This document shows positions 6,813 to 14,388 of a stretch of DNA of 27,780 nucleotides, one piece after another (position 1 is the first letter of the stretch; each line of letters opens with the position of its first letter). Under the pieces are notes generated by a model. It was not told the DNA's origin, searched no databases, and saw nothing but the letters and a program-made list of their open reading frames with translations. The stretch comes from Tolypothrix carrinoi HA7290-LM1. Lineage in GTDB: Bacteria > Cyanobacteriota > Cyanobacteriia > Cyanobacteriales > Nostocaceae. Location: positions 1-27,780 of the forward strand of contig JAHHIK010000108.1 of the NCBI GenBank assembly GCA_019358935.1. The letters are read 5' to 3'. The position numbers and the translations under genes were made by a program.

Positions 6813-6904
6813 GCGATGTCTGACGACAAGCCCTTCGGGTTCGGGAGTTCGCAATCGACGGGAACCGCCAAGACTGCGACTCCCTCACCGCTTTGCGTCT
6901 ACGC
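6813..6904 (+). mobile_element. SDR5-like small element inside a split HIP1 site, itself carrying a nested element
   Basis: GCGAT(6813-17)-GTCTGACGACAAGCC[...]GCTTTGCGTCTA-CGC(6902-04). The inner segment ends ...CAAGACTGCGACTCCCTCA-CC, like the type B repeat at 955-1001. Confidence 0.7.
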
Positions 6905-7168: not shown

Positions 7169-7903
7169 ATGAGCCGAATTAATGGATTTGTTGGGCATCG
7201 TAATTTATTAAAGTTAGTAGGTGTGGGAGGTGCTGGTATTGCTGCTACTGCTGCTGGCAGTGTACTTTTAAGTGGAGAGAAAGCTGTTGCTCAACAACAA
7301 TCTACTCCTGTACAAAAACCTCAACCAGTTAGTCCTGATGCAGCTATAAAAAGATTGGTGGAAGGAAATCAACGGTTTGTTGACGGAAAGCGTCTCAACC
7401 CCAACCAATCACGGTTGCGTTTGCAAGAAACTTCCGTAGCTCAGTATCCGTTTGCAGCTATACTAGGTTGTGCCGATTCTAGAGTGCCTGCGGAAATTGT
7501 TTTCGATCAGGGACTAGGAGATTTATTTGTCGTGCGAGTTGCTGGTAATGTAGCTGCTCAAGAGGCTATAGGTAGTCTAGAATTTGCTACAGCCGTATTA
7601 GGTGCCCAAACTATCATGGTTTTAGGTCATGCGAGATGCGGTGCAGTATCAGCTGCTATAAAAGGCGATCCTCTACCAGGTAGAATTGGCATTTTTGTTG
7701 AAGAAATCAAGCCAGCTGTAGAAAGGGTAAGAAACAAAACTGGCAATATAGAAGAAAATGCCATTATTGCTAATGTACAATATCAGGTGGGAAGGTTGGC
7801 AGAAAGCTCAACGATTTTAGGAAAGTTGATTAAAGAAGGCAAACTGAAAATAGTTGGTGGTCATTACGACCTCGCTAAAGGAAAAATCACCATGTTAAGC
7901 TGA
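7169..7903 (+). CDS. Beta-class carbonic anhydrase (EcaB-like), copy 2
   Basis: GCADSRV and GHARCGAV. The Tat-like leader has HR instead of RR. Confidence 0.93.
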   Translation: MSRINGFVGHRNLLKLVGVGGAGIAATAAGSVLLSGEKAVAQQQSTPVQKPQPVSPDAAIKRLVEGNQRFVDGKRLNPNQSRLRLQETSVAQYPFAAILGCADSRVPAEIVFDQGLGDLFVVRVAGNVAAQEAIGSLEFATAVLGAQTIMVLGHARCGAVSAAIKGDPLPGRIGIFVEEIKPAVERVRNKTGNIEENAIIANVQYQVGRLAESSTILGKLIKEGKLKIVGGHYDLAKGKITMLS

Positions 7904-9762: not shown

Positions 9763-11669
9763 TTACTTCTGGGCAAACCACTGCCGAATCAACTCTACTT
9801 GAAAGCCGTATCCCTCCCCAACCTCCTCAATTAACTCTCTTTGCAACAGCAAATTGATAGTACTTTCCACAACATCAGGAAACTGTTGGAATAAAGCTTT
9901 GCGGCTAACTATTGCCCCTTCCCCAAGTGCAGCGATAAAGCGTAAAATAGTAAGTCCGGCTGCATCGACTTGGTTATTTTGAATATCTGCGAAGAAAAAA
10001 CCGCCACTACTGAAAGCTGCTGGTATCCCCGCTTCTACATCCGCTAAATTTGCCAGTCGGCGCACAGAAGGGTTTTGCTCATTTTTGAGGGCAACAATTT
10101 CTGCACACAGCAATTGTACCAAGAAAGGGTGACAGCGGGTAAGTTGCAATACTCGCTCAACTGCATCGGGTTCATAACGTAGGGTAAAATCTTTGACAGG
10201 ATGCTCTATAAGTTGACGCGCTTCGTCTTCTTTCAGGTACGAGATATGCACAACTTGCACGTTGATGAGATAACTAGCCCAACGCTGATATTCTTGGATA
10301 GTATGAGAGCCAGCAATTAATATCTTAAACTTGGGACGATGTTGGATTAAGTTACGCAGCATTCCTAAAACATCTTCCTCATCAAAGCGTCCTTTAGTTA
10401 TGGCACTGTCAAGTACCTCAAACTCATCTAGAGAAAGCAGTGCGGTGTTATCTTGTAACGCTTGTTCTACTTTATCTAACCATTCATCAAAGCTGGTGAA
10501 GGGGTCTTTTTCTAAATCTTCCCGTGTCAAGGATGGTAGAGTTAAGGCGCTTTGCCGTTTAGCTGAGGTTATCATCCCTCTGGCTAGGTTGTAGAGAAAA
10601 CCTGCATAATCACTCGCTGATGAGGGTGCGCCTTGCAAGTCTACAAACAAGGGGATGATGGTATTGGGTAGCAAGCGTCCTAAGTTGTTGAGGAGGGAAG
10701 TTTTGCCCATGCGTCGCTGTCCGTAGAGTAGCAGAGGTGGGCGGCGCCGGTCTAGAAGTAGTTGCTCGATGCGCGTACCGATGTCATTGCGTCCGGTGAA
10801 GATTTCTTGCTGTTGTGTGAGGGGTACGCCGATGATGTAAGGTGAGTCAATTTCTTGGCGAAGTTCTGTTTCTTTGGCGAGTTCTTCTATATATTTGGTA
10901 ATTATCTCACACCAATTTTTGGCAATGAGGTAGAAGCGAGAAGCGTATTTATCGTTGCTTCGGTTAAATTCCTGTAAATGTAAATCTATTCGGTCTGCAA
11001 CATCTGTGAGTACTAAACGTTGATTATAAGCACTTTCTTGATTTAAAGCAGCGTCTACATCTTCGCTAATCCGACTGAGAAGACGTAATCTAGGGCTTAT
11101 TAGGGTTTCTATTTCCCCAATTTCTAGTTGACGCTGAACTTGACGGATGGCTTTGACATCTTTACAGCGTTCTAAAGAGCGTATATCAAGTTCAATTTGT
11201 ACAGCTTGAACTGCCCAACGTTGGCGACTGGTAGTTAGGTATTCTAGGGCGGCTTTTCCCTCAACTGGATTATGTTCTATTACAAACAGAAGATACTTGT
11301 CTAACCCAACTAGAGGTATGCGCTGCCATTCATCCCAAAAAGCGCAATGGTAGCGCAATAAACAAGGGCTTCTAGTATTACGTGCTTTATCTAATCTATA
11401 AAGCAGATAATTCCAGGCTGTGAGAAATGGAAAGAATAGAATAGGTCGGCATAGGTTAATAGTTACTCCCATGCCGGATGCCATGCCAGTCAGCACGCCT
11501 AGCGCCATGCCAAACCCCACACCTAGCGCCACGCCGGATGCCACGCCGGATGCCACGCTGAGGGACGGAAGATAAGCCAGAATAGCAGTTGCAGGCTACC
11601 CAGTATCAAGTTGGTGTGCTGTTTGGGTGCATCGGTGTAGGCGTTGCGGGGTATGTCTGGTGAGGTCAT
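9763..11669 (-). pseudogene. Membrane-anchored STAND/AAA-type P-loop ATPase, frameshifted near its 5' end
   Basis: SPYIIGVP..FTGR, Walker A GQRRMGKTS, Walker B LLSLDEFE, HPFLVQLLC. The apparent N-terminus (MTSPD...LQLLFWLIFRPSAW, ATG 11669) is in a different frame from the GVAxG repeats and the ATPase (9763..11556). Confidence 0.75.
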
Positions 11670-11887: not shown

Positions 11888-12226
11888 TCATTGCAGCACT
11901 TCCCAATCTTCTGGAGGCACAGCTGGCTCAAATGGTTCATCATAGCGATAAACCTTCTCACGTAAAGGATTGAGCAAAATATTTCTCATCGTTCGGTTAA
12001 CTAAACTAAGATAATCGTCTAATTCTTCATATACAGTCAATTCTGTTTCTTCTTCGGAAGTGAGAGCAGATTCTTTTTGTTTATTTATTAATTTTTCAAT
12101 TCGCTCCTGTACCTGACTAGAAGCGCGAAATATTGGTACTCCTTCTACTAACTCGATGCGAACAGCACCCTCTAAAGGTAAACTGTTGGGTAAGTGATGC
12201 AGCTTTAGGGGAAAATTAATTGTCAT
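11888..12226 (-). CDS. Small hypothetical protein, antitoxin-like
   Basis: 112 aa. The QERIEKL..KQKESALTSEEETEL and YDEPFEPAVPPEDWE segments resemble small cyanobacterial TA-associated proteins (from recollection, not searched). Confidence 0.6.
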   Translation of the reverse strand: MTINFPLKLHHLPNSLPLEGAVRIELVEGVPIFRASSQVQERIEKLINKQKESALTSEEETELTVYEELDDYLSLVNRTMRNILLNPLREKVYRYDEPFEPAVPPEDWEVLQ

Positions 12227-12262: not shown

Positions 12263-12874
12263 CTACTTATCCAATTGCAAATCGCACTGTTGAAACACAT
12301 AGTTAACAGCCGCAAATAGCCGCTCCAAATCCTGAATTGTATAGAAAGTTTTATTTTGTGTAAATATATCTAAATTTAACTTGCCAAACTGCCATACTGC
12401 TCCATTAGAAACAATGCCAAATATAGTTTTTTCTGGTTCGTTATTAATCCGCTGCACTGCTAACATTTCTGCCAAGCACTGACCCCAACCTTCGGTAAAA
12501 TCGCTTTCTTTCTTTGCTTCAACTAAGACAAAATATGGCTTGTCAAACACTACTGTACCAAGAGGCGATCGCTTTGCCAATATATAATCAGGAACACCGC
12601 ACAACTTCTCATCATAAATCAACGTTTGGTGACTCCAAAGTAAAAACTTACTTCTATAAGCTTTCCATACTTCTTTTAATACTGGATAAATAATATTCTC
12701 ACAAATCGCAATTTCTGAATTATCAAAAACTCCTTCATTAAAAATCAAATCTAATTCCTGTCTAAAAGTGGCACTAATTTCAAAAGGTGTTTCTCTAATG
12801 AAATTATCCCGAACATACTTAATCTGAAATTCTTTGGCAACAACGCTAATACTCTTGTAACTACTAAAAGGCAT
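12263..12874 (-). CDS. Hypothetical protein with PD-(D/E)XK nuclease-like fold (HsdR-N-like)
   Basis: SEIAICE...GVPDYIL...VLVEAKK...GWGQCLAEM...GIVSNG pattern. Confidence 0.7.
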   Translation of the reverse strand: MPFSSYKSISVVAKEFQIKYVRDNFIRETPFEISATFRQELDLIFNEGVFDNSEIAICENIIYPVLKEVWKAYRSKFLLWSHQTLIYDEKLCGVPDYILAKRSPLGTVVFDKPYFVLVEAKKESDFTEGWGQCLAEMLAVQRINNEPEKTIFGIVSNGAVWQFGKLNLDIFTQNKTFYTIQDLERLFAAVNYVFQQCDLQLDK

Positions 12875-12878
12875 TTTT

Positions 12879-14388
12879 TCAGTCCTCCTTTTGTGTATCT
12901 AACAAATGAGCAAATGGTTTTATCTGTCTTAACCCTTCTTCTTGCCAATTTTCATCATCCTCCCCATCTTCTAAAGTAAACAATCTTTCCATACAAAGAA
13001 TTTGTAATAAAAGTGGAAAACAGCGACTTTGTGTTAAAATCCACTCTACATCTTCTTCAGGAAATGGAATAGGAGAACTTGCTATCAATTCCCGCGCTTC
13101 TGCTTCTGTCAGCGCTCCCAATGTGGCAGTATAGCCGAAAATATTGAAGAAGGGTGAACTATGTCCGGTATTATGTGCTAGTTCAACTGGTGAAGAGTGG
13201 GTTGCTAAAACAAACGCTAAATTACCATCTGTAGAGTTTGTAGCTAAAGAACGCAAACATTCCCAAAATCCATCATCTAACTCTGGACAGCGTTGCAATC
13301 CTACGCCAATTTCATCTAGTAAAATAACTGTGGGATTATGCAAATTTTCACTCACCAAATCCATGAAGTAATCAAGATTAATCGATTTTGGATTTTGGAT
13401 TTTAGATTTTGGATTTGATTCGGTCGATACTTGTATATTCAAAGATTCTAAAATGTAACTTAGTAGTCTTTCTCTGTTTGCCATGCGTTGGTCTTGAAAG
13501 TCTACGAATATCCACTTGTAATTTTCTGGATGCGGTAGCCAATCAGACTTTTGATTGAGGCGTAAATTTTCTGTTGGGGTTGTGGTGATGTTTTTCAGGT
13601 AGTGCAGCAGGGAGGTTTTACCGCTGCGCTTTTTACCGATAATGGCGGCGTTTTGTAGGGGATAGCGTTTAAGTAAGTTGAAAAGGCGTTTAAGTTCTTT
13701 CTCACGTCCGAAAAAGTAGCGAGGATCGGTGATTGGGGTTCCGGTGATGAAAGGCGTTCGCGAAGCGTTGCCGTACTCGGCATCGCTCTTCTTTTTTTCT
13801 TCCTACTACAAGCTTATTATGTTCTTTTCTATACAAAACAGGTTTTAGATGTTCTGGCAGACTATATAGTTGAATTTCTACACAACCAAACTGATAAGCG
13901 TCTTCTATTGAACGATTTGCGACTAATGCTTTATAAAAACCAACTGCGAAAGCGATCGCAGCTTTATCACCGATAGCGTCATTCATCCCAATTACAAAGG
14001 GGATGTGTTGAGCGATCGCAACAGCCTGTATTTCAGAATAGCAGGCATTCAACACCACACAATTAACTTGCAATGAGAATAACTTGAACATTGCAGCTAA
14101 AGCATCAGGCTTGACAGGCTGAACTTTGCCGACTTCATTTTCAAAGCACAGTTCACCACTACTCTTACCATGTCCAGAAAAGTGTATAATCTGCGGTTGA
14201 ATATCAAATATCGCTTGTGTGATATCCCCGACGCGGACTGACTCTTGCTGTTCTAGTTGATACTTTCCTGATTTGGCTATTTGCAGTCTTGCTTTGATAT
14301 CTCGCAACTCTTGAAATAATCTTAGTCGAGATTCATCACTCGGATCGGCTGCTAAAAACAGGATTTTTACCGGGATATCACTGTTCAT
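12879..14388 (-). pseudogene. CHAT (caspase-like protease)-STAND ATPase fusion, frameshifted by a 25-nt insertion
   Basis: CHAT motifs ILFLAADP, IIHFSGHG, LNACYS. The downstream frame reads PFITGTPITDPRYFFGRE..IIGKKRSGKTSLL and continues into ORF 12879..13484 (VILLDE). 1510-25 = 1485 nt = 494 aa + stop. Confidence 0.88.
13754..13786 (-). mobile_element. 25-nt SDR5-like insert (13757-13781) inside a split HIP1 site
   Basis: Minus strand GCGAT|GCCGAGTACGGCAACGCTTCGCGAA|CGC, containing two mini-hairpins, GCCG-AGTA-CGGC and CGC-TTC-GCG. Confidence 0.85.

Follow-up and report, generated by a model that had tools for sequence, protein, structure and literature searches.

A 25-nucleotide SDR5-family mini-element in a HIP1 site, probably a recent insertion that inactivated a dispensable CHAT protease-STAND ATPase gene

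The window analyzed here is a stretch of 27,780 nt on contig C108 of the host genome (G000), which has a size of 7.96 Mb and contains 7,884 HIP1 octamers. On the minus strand of the window lies a gene for a CHAT protease fused to a STAND ATPase, which is interrupted by a short insert (Table 1). Read on the minus strand from 13786 to 13754, the interrupted site consists of GCGAT, the 25-mer, and CGC, and on the plus strand the insert is placed after base 3 of GCGATCGC without duplication. An earlier interpretation made from the letters alone (hereafter the sequence-only reading) had described a 25-nt insert that splits HIP1, which is confirmed with the break after the third base of the octamer, and had called it a variant whose length is not a multiple of 3, which is likewise correct; the insert breaks the reading frame. 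When positions 13757-13781 are omitted, a single frame of 494 codons with one terminal stop extends from 14388 to 12879, as that reading had predicted, and this is the sole removal register that gives a 494-codon product. The restored frame contains the motifs HFSGHG (residue 69), LNAC (residue 113), GKKRSGKTS (residue 243), and LLDE (residue 348), and the CHAT His/Cys and Walker A/B motifs are intact, as had been claimed. Pfam places CHAT in the upstream ORF and AAA_16/nSTAND1 in the downstream part, and PADLOC matched the gene with generic CHAT models only.

Table 1. Positions of the interrupted gene, the insert and its parts, and further features in the window (an empty strand cell means that no strand is assigned)
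Feature	Position	Strand	Remark
CHAT protease-STAND ATPase gene, interrupted	12879..14388	-	494 codons without the insert
Upstream ORF as it stands, 228 aa	13702..14388	-	CHAT domain (202 native residues) plus 26 off-frame residues
ATPase part	12879..13756	-	open frame begins just past the stop at 13805
Heptamer tandem-repeat insertion, in-frame, net 36 nt, ATPase domain	13384..13427		36 nt at about 13392-13427; older; also in P0133
HIP1 left part GCG	13754..13756	+	insert comes after octamer base 3
25-nt two-hairpin mobile insert, SDR5-family length variant	13757..13781		missing from orthologues
Hairpin 2, 3-bp stem, GAA loop	13759..13767	+	GCGAAGC mini-hairpin motif at 13760-13766
Hairpin 1, 4-bp stem	13770..13781	+	loop enlarged, off the GNA/GNNA rule of the family
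HIP1 right part ATCGC	13782..13786	+	no target duplication
Seven-A run	13792..13798	-	just upstream of the insert, both frames open there; slippage-prone
Second family member in the window, intergenic, 84 nt	6818..6901	+	split HIP1 (6813-6817, 6902-6904)

In its present state, the gene had been read as yielding a stand-alone CHAT domain without its ATPase. This stands as far as the ORF is concerned, and such a protein, if made, would consist of 202 native and 26 off-frame residues. In the ATPase part, the first ATG, GTG, or TTG occurs at 13484, and the Walker A and B motifs are located at 13637-13611 and 13322-13311, respectively; synthesis of the whole ATPase through an internal restart was rejected since the earliest start lies beyond Walker A. 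Downstream on the minus strand, the gene is followed by a PD-(D/E)xK nuclease-like ORF (window 12263-12874; PADLOC PD_DExK, E 2.7e-45), a 112-aa ORF (11888-12226), and a second STAND ATPase (9763-11556). These downstream neighbors vary among relatives, and the region looks like a variable cassette.

The HIP1 site is empty in all three CHAT-bearing orthologues of the same genus (G009, G006, and G001), whose ORFs are intact (480, 482, and 479 aa, respectively), and an insert at the junction was found in none of the 14 other proteins of alignment A2. A comparison with orthologues at this site had been recommended by the sequence-only reading, along with the view that the gene was ancestrally a single CHAT-ATPase unit. 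The latter is upheld by the fused ORF in relatives, on which ground separate CHAT and ATPase genes were rejected. Four of the 23 listed sequencing runs (X1-X4) were also compared, all in the form of contigs, which drop rare variants; in the RNA runs, the share of matching words did not exceed 0.07. In X1, which may be the source of the assembly (depth about 510-540), two contigs span the insert with no differing letter, and in X3 and X4 exactly 25 letters are missing at 13757. The insertion is not due to chance, because HIP1 is empty in the three orthologues and the 25 letters are absent from X3 and X4. An assembly error is unlikely as its origin, and an artefact was rejected as the X1 contigs span the 25-mer without alternative letters. 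The filled allele was not seen in exact-pattern scans of genomes (10 matches, of which 3 were cyanobacterial and all empty) or of metagenomes (12 matches with one recognizable allele, L037, which was empty).

Two of the runs carry further changes at the locus. X3 has an empty HIP1 and lacks one letter at 13792 in the A-run, which is apparently an independent frameshift of the CHAT-STAND gene. In X2, from a strain about 96% alike, one contig spans 13428-14125 with 697 letters and a single gap; the gap is unlisted, which is consistent with a position that falls under the 1% filter within a high-depth repeat, and by calculation the bin depths of 384.4 and 519.2 fit a cover of 53/54 and 54/54 places. 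Judging from these tables, the same HIP1 apparently contains a net 24-nt, in-frame insert in X2, with hairpin 2 one base shorter. The heptamer insertion listed in Table 1 is missing from X2, and an independent insertion or a recombined patch is therefore as likely as shared descent. A 71-letter contig of X2 corresponds to the filled site with one mismatch (window 13754-13786) and has a depth of 1387, compared to 14 for the gene's contig; this suggests a large expansion of that variant in the sample, depth not being equal to copy number.

The 25-mer had initially been regarded as the only visible lesion of the gene, which is true in the sense that it is the only frame-breaking one and not true with respect to a second indel, the in-frame heptamer insertion in the ATPase domain. 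An identical heptamer insertion is carried by the intact 494-aa orthologue P0133, from which it follows that this insertion is older and tolerated, and that the 25-mer is the later and sole inactivating change; as a second lesion the heptamer insertion was rejected for the same reason. In comparison with four close orthologues, 10 synonymous and 14 non-synonymous changes are private to the host genome (site ratio 3.6). Of the latter, nine fall next to the heptamer insert (alignment codons 310-329) and another is E41G; P0133 has the nine as well as E41G. After removal of the P0133-common changes, 4 non-synonymous changes remain versus about 36 under neutral decay (the synonymous changes were not split by region), and the knockout can thus be considered recent, in agreement with the sequence-only reading. 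Of 61 genomes, 16 were found to contain the ATPase part, among them 4 of 10 congeners, from which we infer that the CHAT-STAND gene is patchily distributed and dispensable.

The insert belongs to a family that is dispersed over the host genome. A second exact copy is located at C27:74961, two copies with one or two mismatches lie on C102 and C98, and all four sit between GCG and ATCGC. Copies of the 25-mer were detected in 4 of 10 same-genus genomes. The complete 33-nt filled site (up to two mismatches) was present in 5 of 61 genomes, all of one genus, with none among the 50 other genera searched, and a scan with one genome per species gave six matches, all in Tolypothrix or Plectonema radiosum. 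Filled and empty orthologous sites could be paired in both directions: from nine relatives' copies that were compared with the host genome, two (L049 and L058) align to an empty HIP1 on contigs C4 and C147, the remaining alignments being partial or confounded by repeats, and the site of the C27 copy is empty in G001 and G009. No clean orthologous site was obtained for the C102 copy. In two variants of the 25-mer (C98:24850 and L058), the sequence ends in AT and a complete HIP1 is rebuilt at one end.

The family was delimited with a strict grammar (GCGAT, hairpin 1, two purines, hairpin 2, and CGC), which was set after seeing looser lists and replaced earlier censuses with high control counts. 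This strict census returned 71 elements in the host genome versus 0-7 in 19 altered-flank controls, with lengths from 17 to 30 nt and peaks at 21 nt (17 elements), 24 nt (8), and 27 nt (18). The genome search for the 25-mer and for GCGAT-N-CGC inserts, which had been suggested as a check, therefore yielded both further copies and a family of at least 71 members. Across the 61 genomes, the general pattern occurs in 37 (0-1 per genome in the reversed control), with family sizes between 0 and 141. For the 21-nt form there were more than 125 matches, and the 80 of them listed are mostly from Nostoc and include an N. punctiforme record. A 24-nt in-frame sister with an identical hairpin 1 is common to contig C128 of the host genome and G003, and it is absent in 4 of 5 congeners tested. 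The second member in the window is apparently of the 27-nt type with another repeat nested in its hairpin 2; it stands between two carbonic anhydrase genes, and related nested inserts are found elsewhere in the genome.

With regard to the fold of the insert, the sequence-only reading of a two-hairpin element can be maintained for the 25-mer alone, for which this fold is predicted (z -1.7; 9 of 200 shuffles fold equally well), and not for the 25-mer together with its HIP1 flanks, for which the lowest-energy predicted fold is one long hairpin. The presumed two-hairpin plan rests on the covariation within the family and not on the energy of this copy. At stem pair 2 of hairpin 1 (n=70), 37 T-A, 28 C-G, and 4 G-C pairs occur with 1 mismatch. 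Compensatory changes in a conserved secondary structure are also reported for SDR5, a repeat of Nostoc punctiforme and relatives (Elhai et al. 2008, Genome Res 18:1484).

The sequence-only reading had likened the insert to SDR5-type elements within HIP1. In passages of the literature, SDR5 is described as a 21-nt repeat (PMC13756078) that inserts between HIP1 bases 3 and 4 (PMC4390886) and occurs in heterocystous cyanobacteria, its function being given there as unknown (PMC4390886, PMC5861425, PMC13756078). The 25-mer shares the position between bases 3 and 4, a heterocystous (Nostocaceae-type) host, and dispersed copies with filled and empty orthologous sites that are polymorphic between relatives; moreover, the host genome has the 17 members of 21 nt with the same grammar, a form that recurs in Nostoc punctiforme. 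It differs in that it has 25 instead of 21 nt, an enlarged hairpin 1, and a broken reading frame, and was found in one genus only among those searched. Since site, host, and mobility agree and length does not, we regard it as an SDR5-family length variant and not as a strict SDR5, the likeness in sequence being indirect and one of grammar. Our literature search returned no paper on length variants, frame effects, or loop rules of SDR5, which the 2008 primary paper or its supplements may cover. Taken together, the segment 13757-13781 is very probably a non-autonomous mini-element of the SDR5 family that was inserted recently and caused a plain knockout of a dispensable gene. A point against this explanation is the apparently filled site of X2 (net 24 nt), which would fit more than one order of events. 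Taken singly, the event is ordinary, one more SDR5-type insertion that inactivates a dispensable gene.

A more far-reaching proposal of the sequence-only reading was that the element might act as a reversible switch, being precisely excised from the DNA in some cells, or from the RNA, to give a conditional full-length CHAT-ATPase. Scarless removal, the intact catalytic and Walker motifs with little decay of the gene, and the seemingly filled site of the related strain X2 fit this idea, yet a recent insertion accounts equally well for the little decay. It was tested genome-wide through the reading frames around the strict-census elements. Elements with a length divisible by 3 (3n) were found in restored frames of at least 150 codons in 21 of 48 cases, compared to 1 of 23 for the non-3n elements, the one case being the copy at 13757-13781 (Fisher p=0.0007). 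Upon dropping four mis-parsed rows, the comparison was 21/48 versus 1/19 (p=0.003), and with one row per distinct sequence, where this copy drops out as a duplicate, it was 17/39 versus 0/17 (p=0.001); these p-values overstate the significance because the family copies are kin. As background, 1830 of 2628 sampled HIP1 sites (70%) lie within frames of at least 150 codons. Nineteen of the 21 in-gene 3n elements keep the frame open, and the nine relatives' copies of the 25-mer restore no 150-codon frame. The in-frame host genes are real, given that Pfam recognizes 10 of the 15 that were tested (E 1e-8), including kinases, an Omp85 protein, and IGPD. Within genes, 12 elements are in sense and 10 in antisense orientation, that is, without bias. 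Efficient removal would make frame-breaking lengths tolerated in genes, which is not what was found, and the switch is thus unsupported. No linked recombinase was found, and no excised form was seen among the X1 contigs, a weak point as contigs drop rare variants. A reversible switch is accordingly judged extremely unlikely.

The knockout reading accommodates these frame data if selection would purge non-3n copies from needed genes and retain 3n copies in protein loops and linkers. The same skew may nevertheless arise when post-insertion indels in intergenic DNA produce the non-3n forms. In a wider census of 92 sites, the frame is intact at 29 and broken at 7 (three of them borderline), and 56 lie outside frames. 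One of the frame-breaking cases is a 27-nt member (L227, C21:12173-12199 of the host genome), which adds an in-frame stop to a gene that was judged galE-like by inspection of its translation. This gene has a paralogue on C17 with 79% identity, and a search of 5 congeners failed to find it in 3, which indicates that knockouts of spare genes by the family are normal in this genome. Two more frame-breaking candidates are an 85-nt nested member (L228, C105, about 7216-7300) and a 27-nt member (L229, C147:1834-1860). The genome-wide frame test represents a clear negative on the idea of gene rescue through removal of such inserts at the RNA or DNA level.

Another possibility is that the gene is leaky and still delivers full-length protein through a +1 ribosomal shift, transcript slippage on the A7 run, or a heritable 1-nt loss, in the manner of a contingency-type locus. 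No stop interrupts the ATPase frame in the A7 run or anywhere in the insert, and the loss of 1 nt would restore the full-length protein with eight extra linker residues. Furthermore, the missing letter at 13792 in X3 shows that the run slips, and both the apparent net 24-nt insert of X2 and the 24-nt in-frame sister on C128 and in G003 would be in line with such a locus. On the other hand, the same A7 run is present in intact, empty alleles and is therefore not tied to the insert. For transcript slippage, seven A residues are also few, and the shift that is usually promoted by a hairpin following an A-run is -1, which would not restore the ATPase frame. We consider a leaky gene very unlikely. 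If function returned at all, a 1-nt loss nearby (in the A7 run or the insert) would be a likelier route than programmed excision.

How the family moves may be approached through its loops. On the strand that begins with GCG, the triloops of hairpin 1 read GNA in 32 of 33 cases (all four forms), and the tetraloops read GNNA in 29 of 32 (seven forms, with GNRA in only 4 copies), so that 61 of 65 short loops obey the rule; six further loops are longer, including that of the copy at 13757-13781. On the opposite strand no GNA/GNNA loop was counted, and background stems elsewhere have such loops in 299 of 3634 (8%) and 133 of 2913 (5%) cases. In hairpin 2, the rule holds for 33 of 68 parsed members, and the copy at 13757-13781 has GCGAAGC. 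Folding energies separated neither DNA from RNA nor one strand from the other. According to passages of PMC13037366, GCGNAGC and GCGNNAGC form extraordinarily stable, nuclease-resistant DNA mini-hairpins with poor SSB binding, and the RNA counterpart is far weaker (Tm 39 C versus 76.5 C). The family resembles this mini-hairpin DNA (PMC13037366) in its C-G-closed GNA/GNNA loops on short stems, with an exact GCGAAGC in the 25-mer, and differs in that mini-hairpin DNA is a structural motif and not a mobile element; our literature search found no link between mini-hairpin DNA and SDR5. Because GNA/GNNA is the rule for extra-stable DNA mini-hairpins, the loop rule points to a single-stranded DNA intermediate.

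Copy-in movement at the DNA level, taken alone, has in our estimation a little under an even chance of being correct. One strand of a filled site would fold into two mini-hairpins capped by GNA/GNNA, and a closing stem could form between the HIP1 ends. In a recipient HIP1, a host enzyme unlinked to the element might then make a nick behind GCGAT, whereupon the free end might copy or take up the folded donor and rejoin at CGC. A directed cutting of HIP1 has been suggested as a partial cause of precise SDR5 insertion in a passage of PMC4390886. Several points weaken this DNA-donor model. The loop bases might be a sequence read by a protein and not needed for folding, the family copies share ancestry, hairpin 1 of the copy at 13757-13781 is off the loop rule, and hairpin 2 follows it in only 33 of 68 cases. 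Moreover, no mobilizing enzyme was found. Family members were absent from the flanks of the 7 Y1_Tnp matches, the 8 motif-scan ORFs, and the RAYT-like gene on C1, and no census member lies within 1 kb of the HUH genes of the host genome. A small Ssn-type GIY-YIG gene was not found in the host genome, where one GIY-YIG match lies in a 630-codon frame and lacks flanking family members, and tblastn with a relative's small GIY-YIG protein gave no match; the family thereby differs from Ssn/SRM, as described in part of PMC11893778, in that the host genome has no small GIY-YIG Ssn gene flanked by the motif. Inspection by eye of the ORFs between 7 close element pairs gave no enzyme candidate.

The same knockout may have been caused by a family whose movement involves an RNA copy that is reverse-transcribed, as is reportedly the proposal of Elhai et al. 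(2008). Compensatory stem changes fit any folded single strand and hence this route as well. The loops are nonetheless GNA/GNNA and rarely GNRA (4 of 32 tetraloops), an orientation bias relative to host genes is missing, and the RNA counterpart of the mini-hairpin is far less stable (PMC13037366, in part). Altogether, we find the RNA route unlikely.

Alternatively, the family behind the knockout could be mobilized in trans by an HUH tyrosine transposase (IS200/IS605 TnpA or RAYT) in a peel-and-paste manner. This would agree with the lack of target duplication, the fixed short target, the hairpins, and the strand asymmetry, and several such enzymes are encoded by the host genome. REP/REPIN sequences with RAYT and the IS200/IS605 elements are likewise short hairpin repeats thought to be mobile as single-stranded DNA (passages of PMC3116915, PMC3733652, and PMC6006769). 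In the present family, 44 of 71 members begin with TAG after the HIP1 G and have a GTAG foot like that of REPs, but the copy at 13757-13781 has GTTC. Unlike REP/RAYT systems, the HIP1 family comes without a cognate transposase gene flanked by its repeats, enters coding sequence, and has a fixed HIP1 target. On either side of the RAYT-like genes lie palindromes of another kind, specific to them, and the distance of the HUH genes from census members counts against this route too, which we rate as rather improbable.

Returning to the DNA-donor model, one may tentatively go further, to an idea that we hold to be possible and yet not probable, namely that SDR5-family elements are minimal single-stranded DNA donors, in which two nuclease-resistant GNA/GNNA mini-hairpins would form a three-way junction closed by the HIP1 ends; they would be written scarlessly into a single bond of HIP1 by an unlinked host enzyme and could carry any cargo that keeps the fold (18 to over 80 nt). 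If true, this would constitute site-specific micro-insertion without an element-encoded protein, and HIP1 would gain a biochemical partner. The same HIP1 could then be filled with in-frame or out-of-frame versions across strains, as the CHAT-STAND gene seems to show. The one-strand GNA/GNNA rule is a testable handle on how elements of 21-27 nt move and on the factor that acts at HIP1; should the DNA-donor model be right, the enzyme could be found with no more than a synthetic oligonucleotide and a HIP1 reporter on a plasmid.

Further observations concern the surroundings of the orthologous ATPases. In relatives (L005-L016), the same ATPase is combined with different N-terminal domains, being found behind CHAT, helix-turn-helix-type, or TIR-bearing N-termini, as in other cyanobacterial STAND ATPases; we know of no tested function for those with variable N-terminal domains. 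In L006 and L014, whose N-terminus is not CHAT, a HIP1 likewise lies at this junction, and the junction HIP1 may therefore be a point of domain swapping as well. Small GIY-YIG (Ssn-like) and RAYT-like genes adjoin the orthologous ATPase in some relatives (L006:3022-3315, L012, and L007:2684-3223; also listed is C1:32410-32940 of the host genome), and each of these genes is flanked by its own palindromic repeats, which are unlike the HIP1 family.
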